A DNA stretch of 29,766 nucleotides from a virus (taxonomy: Duplodnaviria; Heunggongvirae; Uroviricota; Caudoviricetes), in IMG/VR virus record IMGVR_UViG_2541047966_000011, positions 1 to 29,766 of that record; one strand, given 5' to 3'. The notes under the pieces were generated by a model. That model did not search any database, was not told the DNA's origin, and saw only the letters and a program-made list of their open reading frames with translations. Positions 7,121 to 15,134 of this stretch are shown piece after piece. Made by a program: the position numbers and the translations under genes. Each line of letters opens with the position of its first letter. The first letter of the stretch is position 1.

Positions 7121-7210
7121 AACGAAATTAAAACCTTTGTACCGATAGGGTACAAGTATCTTGAAGGTTCATCTCAATCATGTAATATGTATATCGGAGG
7201 TACATATTGT
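7121..7210. promoter_or_regulatory. divergent promoter and operator region between repressor and Cro-like gene
   Basis: 90-bp AT-rich gap containing the palindrome TTGTACC-gatag-GGTACAA (7137-7155), ATATGTATAT/TACATATTGTA-type motifs, and a candidate rightward promoter TTGAAG (7161-7166)-N16-TAATAT (7183-7188). Confidence 0.5.
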
Positions 7211-7442: not shown

Positions 7443-8006
7443 ATGAGGCTAACCGTGGGTAAGCATCACTGGAAAGTAGAAAAACAGCCTGAGTGGTACG
7501 TGAAAGCTGTCAGAAAAACTATCGCGGCGTTGCCGGGGGGTTACGCTGAAGCTGCTGAGTGGCTGGATGTAACAGAGAACGCTTTATTCAACCGCCTTCG
7601 TGCAGATGGCGATCAGATTTTCCCGCTGGGATGGGCAATGATTTTACAGCGCGCGGCTGGCACTCACTACATTGCGGATGCTGTCGCACAGTCTGCTGGT
7701 GGGGTGTTTGTATCGCTTCCTGAAATTGAGGAAGTAGAGAACGCCGATATAAACCAGCGCCTGCTGGAAGTCATCGAACAGATCGGGAGTTACTCAAAGC
7801 AGATTCGTTCGGCAATCGAAGATGGGGTAGTGGAGCCACACGAGCAGACAGCAATTAATGATGAGTTGTATCTGTCAATTTCGAAGCTCCAGGAACATGC
7901 AGCACTGGTCTACAAAATCTTTTGCGCTCCAGAAAAGAGTGACGCCCGCGAGTGTGCAGCTCCGGGCGTCGTGGCGTTTTGTGTCTGTGGAGAAACTAAC
8001 GCATGA
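7443..8006 (+). CDS. CII-like regulator (YdaT-family-like)
   Basis: 187 aa immediately after the Cro-like gene, the position CII occupies in lambdoid phages. Family assignment from memory, not a visible motif. Confidence 0.5.
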   Translation: MRLTVGKHHWKVEKQPEWYVKAVRKTIAALPGGYAEAAEWLDVTENALFNRLRADGDQIFPLGWAMILQRAAGTHYIADAVAQSAGGVFVSLPEIEEVENADINQRLLEVIEQIGSYSKQIRSAIEDGVVEPHEQTAINDELYLSISKLQEHAALVYKIFCAPEKSDARECAAPGVVAFCVCGETNA

Positions 8007-8151
8007 ACAGTTTAACGGCAAATAACCGTTTGTCGCAACAGCTGGTGGTCAGTGTCGCTGCACACCTGTTGTTACGGCATGAATGCAGATTACCAAATCA
8101 CCTGGCTGTAAGTAACCACAGAGAACTTTACCTGACTGTGGGGGGCGAGTT

Positions 8152-8331
8152 GTGCAGGAACTTAACCGCTGGTTTCGTGACGGAAGAGGACTTTATGTTC
8201 ATGTTATTCGTTGGGAGCCAGAAACACAGCGCGTTATCTATCTTCGCAAAGACTACCCGCATGAGTGCTTTAGTCCTTTGTGGAAATTCAGGCGTGATTT
8301 TGTTGAGTGTGAAGGACCACCAGCACATTGA
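8152..8331 (+). CDS. small hypothetical protein (59 aa), uncertain
   Basis: Not in the ORF track. GTG start after a G-rich stretch (GGGGGGCGAG); translation VQELNRWFRDGRGLYVHVIRWEPETQRVIYLRKDYPHECFSPLWKFRRDFVECEGPPAH. Protein-like composition but no recognised family. Confidence 0.3.
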   Translation: MQELNRWFRDGRGLYVHVIRWEPETQRVIYLRKDYPHECFSPLWKFRRDFVECEGPPAH

Positions 8332-8608
8332 TTCTGCCATTCCGGGACGTTACACTGTTCAGGCACCTTATAAAACGGGTGCCGGGATTGGCGTCCTGAA
8401 ATTGATTACTGAGCATAACCGCGCTCATGCGGTTTTTTCGTGTCATGAGCATTGCTACGCCCAAATTATGGTGGGGCGTACAGGGCCGACTTCGGTCGGG
8501 CCGGGTTCGGTAGTCTCCGGTAACGCCAACCCTGTACGTCTCACCACCTCTGTGATTGGCGTCCCATGTGGTGAGTTTTCTAAAAAACTGACTACCGGGG
8601 CTGTCACC

Positions 8609-9166
8609 ATGACTACTCTCCCAACCCTCTCTCAACCTGAAATTGCCATCGTTGATGGTCAGGCTGTTACATCTTCTTTGGCTGTTGCTGACTTCTTCTC
8701 TAAACGTCATGACGATGTTCTGAAAAAGATCCGCATTTTGGATTGTTCTCCAGAGTTTTGTGCCCGCAATTTTGCGGAGACATCAATTTTGGTACGCCAG
8801 CCCAACGGCGGTACTCGCAAACTTCCTTGCTATCAAATAACCCGCGACGGCTTTGCGTTTCTTGCTATGGGTTTCACGGGGAAACGTGCTGCCCAGTTCA
8901 AAGAGGCATACATCAATGCCTTTAACCAGATGGAGAAACAGCTTTCAAAGCCCTCTGTACCGAGCGACGTTGCACATAACGCCAGCGTTCTCTGTTCCTA
9001 CATTTCATCAATTCATCAGGTCTGGTTGCAGCAGCTTTATCCCATGCTGGAAAAAGCTGAATCACCGCTGGCTGTAAGTCTGTATGACCGAATTAACGAT
9101 GCGGCATTTCTTGCCCGTCTTATTCATTCGTCGCTGAACTCTTCAGAGGTAAGGGGGCGCAAATGA
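8609..9166 (+). CDS. rha: phage regulatory protein Rha
   Basis: From ATG 8609: MTTLPTLSQPEIAIVDGQAVTSSLAVADFFSKRHDDVLKKI...PCYQITRDGFAFLAMGFTGKRAAQFKEAYINAF, a typical Rha N-terminal pattern. The ORF-track frame runs from 8003, but the upstream 200 codons look non-genic. Confidence 0.7.
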   Translation: MTTLPTLSQPEIAIVDGQAVTSSLAVADFFSKRHDDVLKKIRILDCSPEFCARNFAETSILVRQPNGGTRKLPCYQITRDGFAFLAMGFTGKRAAQFKEAYINAFNQMEKQLSKPSVPSDVAHNASVLCSYISSIHQVWLQQLYPMLEKAESPLAVSLYDRINDAAFLARLIHSSLNSSEVRGRK

Positions 9167-10204: not shown

Positions 10205-10693
10205 ATGAGTCTTTTGAATGAAGTTCAGAAATTCATTGAAGCCCATCCGGGGTGTACTTCCGGAGACATTGCGGATGCTTTTGCAGGTTACTCACGGCAG
10301 CGCGTTCTGCAGTCAGCAAGCAAGTTACGTCAGAGTGGGCGTGTGGCTCACCGTTGTGAAGGAGATACACGCAGACATTTCCCACGCCTGACTGAGAGAG
10401 CGCAGGAGCCGGAACCACAACCAGTTCGTGAAACCAGACCTGTGCGCAATTTCTATGTCGGCACTAACGATCCCCGGGTGATTTTGTGCCTGACCCGCCA
10501 GGCGGAAGAACTGGAGTCCAGGGGCTTATACCGTCGTGCTGCAACGGTGTGGATGGCGGCATTCCGTGAAAGCCACTCCCAGCCAGAACGAAACAATTTT
10601 CTGGCGCGTCGTGAGCGGTGCTTACGGAAAAGCAGCAAGCGCGCTGTATCGGGTGAAGAGTGGTATCTGTCAGGGAATTACGTGGGGGCTTAA
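10205..10693 (+). CDS. putative transcriptional regulator; winged-HTH-like N-terminus, C-terminus reminiscent of PerC/ANR-type small regulators (uncertain)
   Basis: ATG at 10205 lies 5 nt after GGGGG; the ORF-track start at 10199 is GTG. Arg-rich C-terminal half. Stop overlaps the methyltransferase start (TAATG). Confidence 0.45.
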   Translation: MSLLNEVQKFIEAHPGCTSGDIADAFAGYSRQRVLQSASKLRQSGRVAHRCEGDTRRHFPRLTERAQEPEPQPVRETRPVRNFYVGTNDPRVILCLTRQAEELESRGLYRRAATVWMAAFRESHSQPERNNFLARRERCLRKSSKRAVSGEEWYLSGNYVGA

Positions 10694-11346
10694 TGAGTAA
10701 TAAATATTGCCAGGCGCTGGTGGAGCTGCGGAACAAACCAGCCCATGAACTGAAGGAAGTGGGCGATCAGTGGCGCACGCCGGATAACATTTTCTGGGGA
10801 ATTAACACCCTGTTTGGCCCGTTTGTTCTGGATCTGTTCACTGATGGTGATAACGCCAAATGTGCCGCTTATTACACTGCGGAAGACAACGCGCTGGCGC
10901 ATGACTGGTCTGAACGTCTTGCGGAGCTTAAAGGTGCTGCCTTTGGTAATCCCCCGTACAGCCGCGCCAGTCAGCATGAAGGGCAATACATCACCGGCAT
11001 GCGTTACATCATGAAGCATGCCAGTGCCATGCGTGATAAGGGCGGACGCTATGTTTTCCTGATCAAAGCTGCCACCAGCGAAGTGTGGTGGCCGGAAGAT
11101 GCAGATCATATTGCTTTTATTCGCGGGCGTATTGGTTTTGAACTGCCTGCCTGGTTTATCCCGAAGGACGAGAAGCAGGTGCCGACAGGCGCTTTCTTCG
11201 CTGGTGCTATTGCTGTTTTCGACAAGACCTGGAAGGGACCGGCAATCAGCTACATCGGGCGCGATGAACTTGAGGCATGTGGTGAGGCGTTTCTGGCGCA
11301 GGTTCGCCAGCAGGCAGAAAAACTGGTCAGGGAGATGGCGGCATGA
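10693..11346 (+). CDS. phage N6-adenine DNA methyltransferase (Dam-type, orphan)
   Basis: Contains the amino-methyltransferase catalytic motif within AAFGNPPYS (NPPY). ATG at 10693 (MSNKYCQ...). No adjacent restriction endonuclease gene. Confidence 0.8.
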   Translation: MSNKYCQALVELRNKPAHELKEVGDQWRTPDNIFWGINTLFGPFVLDLFTDGDNAKCAAYYTAEDNALAHDWSERLAELKGAAFGNPPYSRASQHEGQYITGMRYIMKHASAMRDKGGRYVFLIKAATSEVWWPEDADHIAFIRGRIGFELPAWFIPKDEKQVPTGAFFAGAIAVFDKTWKGPAISYIGRDELEACGEAFLAQVRQQAEKLVREMAA

Positions 11347-11669
11347 CGACGTTAACTCAATGCCAGCAGCAGGTGCTGGATATGCTGATTTCTTATCAGA
11401 AAGAACGTGGCTTCCCGCCAACCAATCAGGAGGTGGCAACCATGCTGGGATACCGTTCGGTGAATGCAGCGGTGGAGCATCTTCGCGCACTGGAGAAAAA
11501 AGGCGTCATCACGATAAAGCGTGGCGTGGCCCGGGGCATCACGCTTCATACCGCGGTGAAGGACGACGGCAGCGAGGCGGTCGGGATTATCCGCGCACTG
11601 CTTGCCGGTGAGGAAAACGCCAGGCTGCGTGCAGCCCACTGGTTACATGAGAGGGGGCTGAAAGTATGA
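11343..11669 (+). CDS. LexA N-terminal DNA-binding-domain-only protein (lacks the S24 autocleavage domain)
   Basis: Residues 4-67 align by eye to E. coli LexA residues 3-68 (LTxxQQxV...G-PPT-xE-A--LG-RS-NAA-EHL-AL--KGVI-I--G--RGI-L), with recognition-helix residues S, N, A, E conserved. The protein ends at 108 aa with no Ala-Gly cleavage site or Ser/Lys dyad. Confidence 0.75.
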   Translation: MTTLTQCQQQVLDMLISYQKERGFPPTNQEVATMLGYRSVNAAVEHLRALEKKGVITIKRGVARGITLHTAVKDDGSEAVGIIRALLAGEENARLRAAHWLHERGLKV

Positions 11670-12055
11670 AGCTAATACTGCCTTTCCCGCCCAGCGTGAA
11701 CACGTACTGGCGACACCCCAACAAAGGGGCGTTTGCTGGTAAGAGCCTGATAAGCGCGGCGGGGCGAAAATTCCAGAGCGCGGCGTGTGCAGCAATAGTT
11801 GAGCAGTTACGTCGTCTGCCAAAACCAACGTCGGCACCTGCTTCAGTGGAGATCGTGTTGTTTCCTCCGGATAACCGGATCCGCGATCTGGACAACTATA
11901 ACAAGGCGCTGTTTGACGCCCTGACCCACGCGGGGGTGTGGGAAGACGACAGACAGGTGAAAAGAATGCTGGTGGAGTGGGGACCGGTTATCCCGAAAGG
12001 GAAGGTCGAGATCACTATCAGTAAGTACAAGAAAACGGCGGGTGCAGCCGCCTGA
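11666..12055 (+). CDS. rusA: RusA-family Holliday junction resolvase
   Basis: 129 aa starting MKLILPFPPSVNTYW..., the characteristic RusA N-terminus. GAGGGGG upstream; start overlaps the previous stop. Confidence 0.85.
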   Translation: MKLILPFPPSVNTYWRHPNKGAFAGKSLISAAGRKFQSAACAAIVEQLRRLPKPTSAPASVEIVLFPPDNRIRDLDNYNKALFDALTHAGVWEDDRQVKRMLVEWGPVIPKGKVEITISKYKKTAGAAA

Positions 12056-12885: not shown

Positions 12886-13881
12886 GTGACCGTGAGAGCA
12901 TTACTGACCCCTGAAATTGCCCCGCGTATGGGGATCGTATTGTTCAGACCCGGTTCAGAGCTGATGCCCCTGTTTATGCAGGGGCGTGTCCTGCTGGAGC
13001 CTGAGCCAGAACGTTATTCATCTTTTGCCAGTGGTGCCGTTCCGGCGGCATCACAACCGCTGGCGGATGATCCTGCTGTTCGGGCCGTGTTCCGCAATGA
13101 GGCAGTGATCCGTCGTGCTGGTGGCGTGGAATGTCTTGAAAGCTGGTTACTTCGTGAAAAAGGCTGCCAGTGGCCTCATTCCGACTGGCACAGCGAGAAC
13201 ATGACAACAATGCGACACGCTCCGGGCGCAATCCGTCTGTGCTGGCACTGCGATAACCAGCTGCGCGATCAGTTCACGGAACGGCTGGAATCAATGGCAA
13301 CGGATAACTGTGCCCGCTGGGTGTTGTCTGTTGTGCGTCGGGATCTCGGTTTTGATGACAGTCACGTTGTGACAATGCCGGAACTGTGCTGGTGGCTGGT
13401 TCGTAATGATCTGGCGGATGCCTTACCGGAAAGCGCAGCCCGTAAGGCACTGAGATTACCGAATCCTGTTGTGCCGTCTGTCACCCGGGAAAGTGACCTT
13501 GTGCCTTCGGTTCCTGCCACCAGCATCATCCAGGATAAGGCGAAAAAGGTGCTGGCGCTGAAAGTGGATCCGGAGTCGCCGGAGTCTTTTATGTTACGCC
13601 CAAAACGTCGCCGCTGGGTTAATGAAAAGTACACGCGCTGGGTTAAGACACAGCCGTGCGCATGTTGTGGAAAGCCTGCTGATGATCCTCACCACCTGAT
13701 AGGCCACGGTCAGGGGGGAATGGGTACAAAAGCGCATGACCTCTTTGTGTTGCCTTTGTGCAGAAAGCATCACGACGAGCTGCATGCGGATACCGTGGCA
13801 TTTGAAGAGAAGTATGGCTCCCAGCTGGAGCTGATATTTCGTTTTATCGATCGTGCGCTGGCAATAGGCGTACTGGCGTAA
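12886..13881 (+). CDS. DUF968-like nin-region protein with C-terminal Cys/His-rich HNH-like motif
   Basis: 331 aa with GTG start. C-terminal CACCGKPADDPHHLIGHGQGGMGTKAHDLFVLPLCRKHHDELH resembles a zinc-binding HNH-like module. DUF968 name from memory. Confidence 0.55.
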   Translation: MTVRALLTPEIAPRMGIVLFRPGSELMPLFMQGRVLLEPEPERYSSFASGAVPAASQPLADDPAVRAVFRNEAVIRRAGGVECLESWLLREKGCQWPHSDWHSENMTTMRHAPGAIRLCWHCDNQLRDQFTERLESMATDNCARWVLSVVRRDLGFDDSHVVTMPELCWWLVRNDLADALPESAARKALRLPNPVVPSVTRESDLVPSVPATSIIQDKAKKVLALKVDPESPESFMLRPKRRRWVNEKYTRWVKTQPCACCGKPADDPHHLIGHGQGGMGTKAHDLFVLPLCRKHHDELHADTVAFEEKYGSQLELIFRFIDRALAIGVLA

Positions 13882-13894
13882 GTGGAGAACGAGC

Positions 13895-14647
13895 ATGAAC
13901 CTTGAAGCCTTACCAAAATATTACTCCCCAAAATCTCCAAAACTGAGCGATGACGCACCGGCGACAGGCTCGGGTGGTTTAACGATTACGGATGTGATGG
14001 CTGCGCAGGGGATGGTGCAGTCGAAAGCACCGCTTGGGTTTGCCTTATTTCTGGCAAAAGTTGGTGTTCAGGATCCTCAGTTTGCGATTGAAGGTCTGCT
14101 CAATTACGCGATGGCACTGGATAACCCGACATTGAACAAATTGAGTGAAGAAACCCGGTTACAGATCATCCCTTACCTTGTGAATTTTGCCTTTGCTGAT
14201 TATTCCAGGTCTGCGGCAAGTAAGGCTCGCTGTGGGCATTGTGCTGGTACTGGATTTCATAATGTATTGCGCGAAGTGGTGAAACACTCCAGAAGCGGGG
14301 AATCTGTTATCAAGGAAGAGTGGGTGAAGGAACTATGTCAGCATTGCCATGGTAAGGGAGAAGTCAGCACAGCGTGCAGAGGGTGTAAGGGTAAAGGTAT
14401 TGTCCTGGATGAAAAAAGGACCCGGCTTCATGGCACGCCTGTTTATAAGATTTGTGGGCGTTGCAATGGAAACCGGTTTAGCCGTTTACCAACCACACTG
14501 GCGCGGCATCATGTCCAGAAGCTGGTACCAGACCTGACGGATTATCAGTGGTACAAAGGATATGCAGATGTCATTGATAAACTGGTGACAAAGTGCTGGC
14601 AGGAAGAAGCATATGCTGAGGCGCAATTAAGAAAAGTGACGAGATAA
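13895..14647 (+). CDS. late-gene antitermination protein Q-like
   Basis: 250 aa with several CxxC motifs (CGHCAGTG, CQHCHGKG, CRGCKGKG, CGRCNG). It is the last gene before a promoter/terminator module and the lysis cassette, which is the canonical Q position. Confidence 0.65.
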   Translation: MNLEALPKYYSPKSPKLSDDAPATGSGGLTITDVMAAQGMVQSKAPLGFALFLAKVGVQDPQFAIEGLLNYAMALDNPTLNKLSEETRLQIIPYLVNFAFADYSRSAASKARCGHCAGTGFHNVLREVVKHSRSGESVIKEEWVKELCQHCHGKGEVSTACRGCKGKGIVLDEKRTRLHGTPVYKICGRCNGNRFSRLPTTLARHHVQKLVPDLTDYQWYKGYADVIDKLVTKCWQEEAYAEAQLRKVTR

Positions 14648-14797: not shown

Positions 14798-15055
14798 ATG
14801 CAGGGCGAAAAGCAGCAGCCATATTTTTTTAATCCTGGTATGACTGTTGAACAGCTTGAAGACTGGCTGGAGCAGCAAAAGCTTCATCTAAGCCGCTATA
14901 GCCGTCTGGTAAAAGAAAAAGCAGAGCTTGAAGAACGGCTCAGTGATATTTCTGTGGAAATTGAACGAATGTCTGCTGGTGGTTTTAACGGAAAGTTGAG
15001 TTTCCCTTGGGAGTCAAGTTCGCTTCTGAGAAATCATCAACAGGGTAGTATTTGA
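14798..15055 (+). CDS. hypothetical protein (85 aa), first late-operon ORF
   Basis: ATG at 14798 (MQGEKQQPYFF...) with GGAGG about 6 nt upstream. The longer ORF-track form (from 14729) would span the terminator hairpin. Predicted coiled-coil-like, no recognised family. Confidence 0.5.
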   Translation: MQGEKQQPYFFNPGMTVEQLEDWLEQQKLHLSRYSRLVKEKAELEERLSDISVEIERMSAGGFNGKLSFPWESSSLLRNHQQGSI

Positions 15056-15134
15056 CTGAAATAATAAACAGACTGTCATTAAGATCCCTTCCCCTCATAT
15101 CTGAGAGGACCAACAGCAATTAAGAGGGGGCTAA

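Follow-up and report, generated by a model that had tools for sequence, protein, structure and literature searches.

A LexA DNA-binding domain without its protease in the delayed-early block of lambdoid prophages and its possible place in the SOS response

What might a phage do with the DNA-binding half of LexA when the half that permits self-cleavage is absent? The question is raised by a 29,766-nucleotide stretch of DNA from a virus of the Caudoviricetes (IMG/VR record IMGVR_UViG_2541047966_000011, positions 1 to 29,766; the whole stretch is referred to here as the window), in which a gene for a 108-amino-acid (aa) LexA-like protein lies between a Dam-type methyltransferase gene and rusA. 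The reading preferred here is a chain of steps in which the protein would be expressed from the delayed-early transcript, dimerize through its C-terminal tail, bind LexA-like operators, withstand RecA* and so restore repression at SOS-box promoters; taken whole, this chain is a serious possibility that stops short of an even chance. A preliminary description of the DNA, made from its letters and a list of open reading frames (ORFs), had recognized the LexA domain and put forward such a role, and its claims are taken up below where the results bear on them.

The LexA winged helix and the missing protease

Over residues 1-65 the protein matches the Pfam profile LexA_DNA_bind (PF01726) from end to end (profile positions 1-65 of 65; 69 bits, E 2.9e-19), passing the gathering threshold of 23.7 bits over the whole domain, and E. 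coli LexA structures were matched at E 2.5e-16 to 1e-15. The AlphaFold2 (AF2) model of the 108-aa protein, with a mean predicted local distance difference test score (pLDDT) of 77.5, has the elements of a winged helix, consisting of helices at residues 6-22, 28-35 and 40-52 and a beta-hairpin at residues 56-68. Superposition with Foldseek placed model residues 1-68 on the LexA-DNA complex 3jso with a root-mean-square deviation of 1.3 Å over 68 columns at 50% identity. The N-terminal winged helix-turn-helix of LexA that the preliminary description had proposed, to be checked by profile search and a predicted monomer structure, is thus supported by both.

Compared with LexA (TIGR00498; structures 1lea, 1jhh and 3jso), the protein has the same fold, with 44% identity overall to E. 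coli LexA and ~50% over 68 residues, and keeps Ser39, Asn41, Ala42, Glu45, Lys53 and Arg64-Gly65-Ile66; the alignment continues weakly as far as the cleavage-site region. It differs in having neither the S24/dimerization domain nor the Ser119/Lys156 dyad, in the replacement of Glu44 by Val and Arg28 by Asn, and in a 34-residue two-helix tail that stands where LexA has its C-terminal domain. The gene differs as well, being phage-borne and part of a nin operon, whereas lexA is autoregulated from its own SOS boxes. The Pfam profile search gave no match to Peptidase_S24 (PF00717) in the protein, which ends at residue 108, and the absence of the peptidase stands as first described. Because the S24 protease (catalytic) domain is lacking, self-cleavage is impossible. 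Against the lexA equivalog TIGR00498 the score was 69.6 bits for a cut-off of 110.95, with only profile positions 1-91 of 203 aligned; the protein fails the model of LexA proper yet clearly belongs to the LexA_DNA_bind domain family.

The gene is real, functional and under purifying selection. In comparison with the Salmonella homologue, the ratio of nonsynonymous to synonymous divergence (dN/dS) is 0.13 for the whole gene, falling to 0.03 over the winged helix and reaching 0.2-0.25 over the tail, and within the close clade (58 distinct DNA versions) the corresponding polymorphism ratio (pN/pS) is 0.057. The protein is found at a length of 104-108 aa in E. coli, Salmonella, Citrobacter and Hafnia, with homologues in phages of Salmonella, Citrobacter, Hafnia and Klebsiella, and the gene is present in 2233 of the 5426 complete E. 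coli genomes (~41%), with as many as four copies in one genome.

At 95-99% identity the gene is also found in 50 deposited phage genomes, and its carriers include SfV (orf42), SfII, SfIV, mEp460 (gp46), cdtI, 1720a-02 and the Shiga toxin (Stx) phages of types Stx2a, Stx2c and Stx2k. The phage records label it 'LexA-like protein' or, in mEp460 and SfII, 'LexA DNA binding domain protein', and RefSeq, in a prophage 98.8% identical, lists WP_000210155.1 as a 'LexA family transcriptional regulator'. Residues 1-108 also align with profile positions 1-106 of 106 of PHROG 362 ('transcriptional repressor'; E 1.4e-58). The entries in PHROG 362, RefSeq, SfV orf42, mEp460 gp46 and SfII belong to the same protein family with no sequence difference and amount to annotation labels only. 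In a survey of Stx phages, pham 237 (15 phages) was the only LexA pham annotated with pfam01726 (PMC8136144), and it is probably the LexA-like family of the window. Stand-alone LexA DNA-binding-domain proteins are common among predicted viral structures. The literature searches found no functional study of the LexA-like family, only catalogue mentions. At the level of sequence the finding is not new, having already been labelled in databases, and its value lies in the function of the protein.

Recognition helix and C-terminal tail

LexA contacts DNA through Ser39, Asn41, Ala42, Glu44 and Glu45 (PMC3091678). Four of the five are kept in the window protein, the exception being Glu44, which is Val, and the helix reads SVNAAVEHL where that of E. 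coli LexA reads SPNAAEEHL, a difference of two positions. For the relatives, 210 loci were grouped into 21 clusters at 85% identity, and across these clusters Ser39 is invariant and Asn41 and Arg64 are nearly so. Judged by these residues, binding of SOS boxes by a RecA-proof protein of LexA type is plausible.

The tail is predicted by AF2 as two helices, residues 75-87 and 93-102. A profile search of 1.8 billion representatives recovered tail relatives at 40-48% identity in which Ala97 and Leu101 are invariant, and the tail-bearing relatives have in common the pattern E-x4-(I/L)-R-x-L-x-A-x4-A-x3-A-x3-L-x3-G. Conservation and the two predicted helices fit the role in dimerization that had been suggested for the tail. 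The accompanying statement that the tail is unrelated to LexA holds for the second helix (93-102), which has no LexA counterpart, but less well for the first, which aligns weakly with the LexA linker and cleavage region.

That region also revises the earlier statement that the ORF stops before any Ala-Gly pair. Ala88-Gly89 is present and is set opposite LexA Ala84-Gly85 (VGIIRALLAGEE versus VGRVAAGEP) both by MAFFT and by hhalign, a profile-profile comparison of the LexA-like family with ten LexA sequences in which the alignment reaches LexA residue 87. Close homologues have AGEE, AKEE, ANEE or VGEE at this position, distant homologues are without the Gly, and AF2 predicts the segment to be helical. 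Because the Gly varies (G/K/N) even among close homologues, the pair is not a conserved self-cleavage site; it looks instead like an ancestral trace of a lexA gene cut just past the cleavage-site region.

Among the proteins recovered in the search of representatives, four of 147-222 aa (P0137, P0138, P0152 and P0128) possess two tandem LexA DNA-binding domains and no S24 domain, and have the look of natural pseudo-dimers in which the LexA reading head is doubled on a single chain. The presence of two DNA-binding domains per chain in these other protease-less LexA derivatives supports a need for two reading heads, and in the window protein the second would have to come from dimerization through the tail.

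On the preferred reading, the protein would be translated from the rightward delayed-early transcript once the prophage has been induced or a cell infected, during lytic development. The two-helix tail most likely replaces the LexA C-terminal domain as the dimerization element, and the dimer would bind LexA-like operators with CTGT-type half-sites. RecA* could not trigger self-cleavage, so that the repressor would not be removed, and repression would be kept or restored at SOS-box promoters, both those of the host SOS regulon and those of SOS-boxed prophage genes such as dinI, once host LexA has been destroyed. That the protein dimerizes, has this operator specificity, represses rather than activates and benefits the phage is what we infer.

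Genomic setting, SOS boxes and rival functions

The gene sits in a rightward delayed-early (nin) block, with replication genes on one side and Q on the other. A GGGAGA Shine-Dalgarno sequence at 11330-11335 lies 8 nucleotides 5' of the LexA-like ATG, the ATGA at 11343-11346 combines the methylase stop with the LexA-like start, and the ATGA at 11666-11669 combines the rusA start with the LexA-like stop. With such overlaps on both sides, the nin-like position and the translational coupling between the methyltransferase and rusA are as the preliminary description had them. Upstream of this group are genes for PerC, a replication-type helix-turn-helix protein and a Rha-family protein, preceded by a cI(S24)/cro/ymfL immunity region of e14/SfV type, and downstream beyond rusA are KilA-N, DUF968/HNH and then the Q antiterminator.

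Across the relatives the position before DUF968 and Q in the nin region is constant. DUF968 is found downstream of the LexA-like gene in 17 of the 21 clusters, and the DUF968/Q gene order is kept in nearly all clades, down to ~40% identity. The 4-bp overlap of rusA with the LexA-like stop is present in 12 of the 21 clusters, including relatives at 41-47% identity. The Dam methylase was considered as a conserved partner and rejected, since the homologues in Citrobacter and mEp390 have no such gene on their upstream side.

Six clusters (L085, L095, L101, L105, L120 and L129) form a sister clade at 40-45% identity. Its proteins share the winged helix, the two-helix tail and the place before DUF968 and Q, and differ in an N-terminal extension and in their flanks, which are ORFs of 101 and 67 aa rather than Dam and RusA. 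The genes form a co-directional, overlapping string (101-aa ORF, LexA-like gene, 67-aa ORF, DUF968 and Q) that is headed by dinI in four of the six cluster representatives; the 101-aa and 67-aa ORFs have no Pfam match. In L105 the promoter TTGACC-N15-TATACT, which follows a terminator, is overlapped by the canonical SOS box TACTGTTTATTTATACAGTA (score 27), and a similar terminator and SOS box stand at the start of the string in L095. Five of the six clusters have strong SOS boxes upstream; in the remaining one, L085, the locus is cut off where its record starts. In these cassettes the LexA-like protein could feed back on its own SOS-box promoter. As an observation apart, transcription from the SOS-box promoter of the sister-clade cassette may extend into Q without depending on the prophage repressor.

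The association with dinI extends to the closer relatives. The closest complete prophage, E. coli PigCaeca_1, is integrated at dusA and matches the window at 98.8% identity across 9 kb. Beyond the point corresponding to the window's right end, TTGACA and a tandem pair of SOS boxes, CACTGTTTATCCATACAGTT and TGCTGTATACAAACACAGTA (scores 21.7 and 21.4), stand in front of its DinI-like gene. In mEp460 and mEp390 the LexA-like gene likewise occurs together with an SOS-boxed dinI. DinI modulates RecA*, and an uncleavable LexA-type repressor beside dinI would be a second way to lower the SOS response. In its most far-reaching form this becomes a phage-encoded SOS off switch, a RecA-proof LexA paralogue turned on after induction that would re-repress the host SOS regulon and the SOS-boxed genes of this or rival prophages (dinI, LexA-controlled antirepressors and colicins), with negative feedback alongside dinI in the sister clade; at that full breadth the proposal is unlikely.

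An independent LexA derivative is present in the Edwardsiella phage EPP-1 (L086:2200-3210), where a tail-less LexA DNA-binding-domain protein of 71 aa has kept Arg28 and Glu44. Its gene comes after a Rha-family gene and is headed by a strong SOS box, AACTGTATGTAAATCCAGTA, which coincides in part with a -10 element, TACAAT. The protein looks like a more recent capture of the 5' end of lexA.

Several observations weigh against the window protein being a repressor at SOS boxes. At position 44 every tail-bearing cluster representative has Ala, Val, Phe or Leu, and none has Glu; Arg28 (Asn in the window protein) is not kept in the tail-bearing family, and the L105 member, which adjoins the strongest SOS boxes, is without Glu45 too. 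The family has had this altered recognition surface from its origin, and since Glu44 and Arg28 are replaced family-wide, specificity may have shifted; a different dimerization module could in addition alter the spacing of the half-sites. The 29.8-kb window shows no enrichment of SOS boxes, with nine occurrences of CTGT-N8-ACAG at up to one mismatch where 10.0 are expected, and none lies upstream of the LexA-like gene itself. The best SOS-matrix score in the window is 8.4, compared with 13-27 for known sites, on an ad hoc matrix of 22 E. coli SOS boxes. The suggestion that the phage might control SOS-box promoters of its own in this way does not hold within the window. No palindrome conserved across clades was found in a search of the 21 divergent loci, those that are shared occurring only inside homologous coding sequence, and a listing of intergenic palindromes yielded no candidate operator. 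Moreover, dinI is common in lambdoid prophages, and because of this its co-occurrence with the LexA-like gene is weak evidence.

The only characterized phage-encoded truncated LexA homologue also departs from SOS repression. In GIL01, a Bacillus tectivirus, gp6 binds GaCACAnnTGTGaC, a non-SOS site, over the -35 of the late promoter P3 and activates P3 (PMC6182141), an example that a LexA domain without a protease can change both specificity and sign. By analogy, the window protein could be a phage-specific factor of LexA ancestry whose specificity has shifted, acting as a repressor or activator at a few phage promoters (e.g., in nin or Q, or in late timing) with no role in host SOS. This is a live but doubtful possibility, favored by the family-wide replacement of Glu44 and Arg28, by the lack of SOS-box enrichment in the window and by the place just before DUF968 and Q that is kept to ~40% identity. 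Both gp6 and the window protein are early, phage-encoded products with a LexA DNA-binding domain and no protease domain, but gp6 has 66 aa, no tail, the helix SHKTAHRYL and the key residue Lys38, where the window protein has Arg, and experiments have established its site and its role as an activator, whereas the window protein is known here from sequence and model. BLASTP of the window protein against gp6 gave no significant alignment, MAFFT gave ~35% identity, and the recognition helix is far nearer to LexA than to gp6; without the BLASTP alignment and without Lys38, the protein does not group with the gp6 type. Further, no conserved candidate operator was found near the gene across clades, late genes are already served by the Q antiterminator, and the SOS-box/dinI cassettes of the sister clade point to SOS control.

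Action mainly through protein contacts (with RusA, DUF968, host LexA or RecA), such as the recruitment of a resolvase to DNA or interference with LexA, is improbable. The frequent rusA overlap, the downstream DUF968 and a conserved tail to which no function is assigned would suit it, but overlapping genes are the norm in nin regions and imply no complexes, rusA is replaced by a 67-aa ORF in one clade and missing from some loci altogether, and the strongest constraint falls on the helix-turn-helix, where dN/dS is lowest and Ser39, Asn41 and Arg64 are invariant or nearly so. Least probable by far is a decaying, functionless fragment of a captured lexA, a reading with which the hhalign alignment agrees in tracking LexA only to residue 87, as a truncated capture would leave, and to which scattered frameshifted or truncated copies (e.g., P0033 and forms of 87-89 aa) also lend themselves. 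It is effectively refuted by the selection analysis, dN/dS lying far below 1 in both domain and tail, and is opposed by the full-length form found across genera and thousands of genomes, by a tail conserved at 40% identity, and by a good Shine-Dalgarno sequence together with a start and a stop that are both coupled to the neighboring genes. The frameshifted remnant of a full-length gene for which the preliminary description had allowed was likewise not what was found, with dN/dS at 0.13, a length of 104-108 aa kept and the rusA start inside the stop codon. Both of these readings are much less likely than either RecA-proof repression at SOS boxes or a private regulator in the manner of gp6.

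If SOS-box binding by a RecA*-proof protein is true, a very common prophage gene would rewire the host DNA-damage response during induction, with a bearing on the induction of Shiga-toxin phages, competition between co-resident prophages, SOS-driven mutagenesis and responses to antibiotics; the relevant carriers are lambdoid and SfV-like prophages, the Stx2a, Stx2c and Stx2k phages and the serotype-converting phages of Shigella. If specificity has instead shifted, the protein would add to GIL01 gp6 a second, independent instance in which a phage uses the LexA DNA-binding domain as a private regulator.

Further features of the window

Table 1. Coordinates of the LexA-like gene, the parts of its product and associated features (window positions unless a locus is named)
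Feature	Coordinates	Strand	Evidence
Complete gene, 108-aa LexA-like protein	11343..11669	+	ORF list and sequence; ATG start, TGA stop
LexA-type winged helix-turn-helix, residues 1-68	11343..11546	+	PF01726, AF2, Foldseek 3jso, dN/dS 0.03
Recognition helix, residues 39-52, SVNAAVEHLRALEK (LexA SPNAAEEHLKALAR)	11457..11498	+	Alignments
Low-confidence linker, residues 69-74	11547..11564	+	AF2 pLDDT < 50 at residues 71-74
C-terminal tail, residues 75-108, candidate dimerization element	11565..11666	+	AF2 block pLDDT 85-87
Codons of Ala88-Gly89	11604..11609	+	Opposite LexA Ala84-Gly85 cleavage site; Gly not conserved
GGGAGA Shine-Dalgarno and ATGA overlap	11330..11346	+	Read from sequence
ATGA overlap, rusA start / LexA-like stop	11666..11669	+	Sequence
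Dam-type N6-adenine methyltransferase, upstream	10693..11346	+	Pfam PF05869, E 9.7e-46
RusA Holliday-junction resolvase, downstream	11666..12055	+	Pfam PF05866; synteny conserved
DUF968/HNH-like gene and Q antiterminator	12886..14647	+	Pfam PF06147, PF03589
L105 cassette: terminator, sigma-70 promoter/SOS box, dinI, 101-aa ORF, LexA-like gene, 67-aa ORF, DUF968, Q-like gene	L105:2200-5174		
PigCaeca_1 DinI-like gene, beyond the window's right end, adjoining the dusA-site integrase	L210:15640-15984		

Between ymfL and the start of the Rha domain there is an odd stretch of ~600 bp (8007-8640). It is spanned by an ORF at 8003..9166 that matches no family over its first ~200 residues; in the RefSeq annotation the Rha gene begins at 8202 and a fragment of a DUF4222 pseudogene is indicated. 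A hairpin resembling an intrinsic terminator occurs at 8417-8434. The stretch also contains the sole perfect CTGT-N8-ACAG of the window (8106-8121), followed by the inverted repeat CCACAG-N14-CTGTGG at 8116-8141. As an SOS box the perfect match was rejected on the basis of its G+C-rich spacer, its matrix score of 7.3 and the ~0.26 occurrences expected by chance.

Between Q and the lysis genes, at 15037-15073, CTGAAATAATAAACAG is one mismatch from an SOS box, with an all-A+T spacer and a matrix score of 7.8. It begins directly after the stop codon of an 85-aa ORF, 64 bp 5' of the holin gene, and overlaps a promoter-like TCAACA-17-AATAAT. The Q-to-lysis interval of SfV and mEp460 has instead a strong SOS box that falls in the opening codons of an N6_N4 methylase gene (L002:34170-34189 and L003:41021-41040).

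The defense-system search with PADLOC gave nothing meaningful. The DNA-binding domain of the prophage's own CI was compared with the LexA-like protein and has no similarity to it, so that mimicry of that domain was rejected; the N-terminal domain of CI has no Pfam match. In the cI-cro intergenic region (7137-7208) there are two palindromes with TGTA-N9-TACA cores, TTGTACCGATAGGGTACAA and AATATGTATATCGGAGGTACATATT, which are presumably the immunity operators. At the left end of the prophage (898-2195), which abuts a dusA fragment, the near-identical prophage in RefSeq has genes for a YafO-family toxin and a PrtN-family (excisionase-like) protein.

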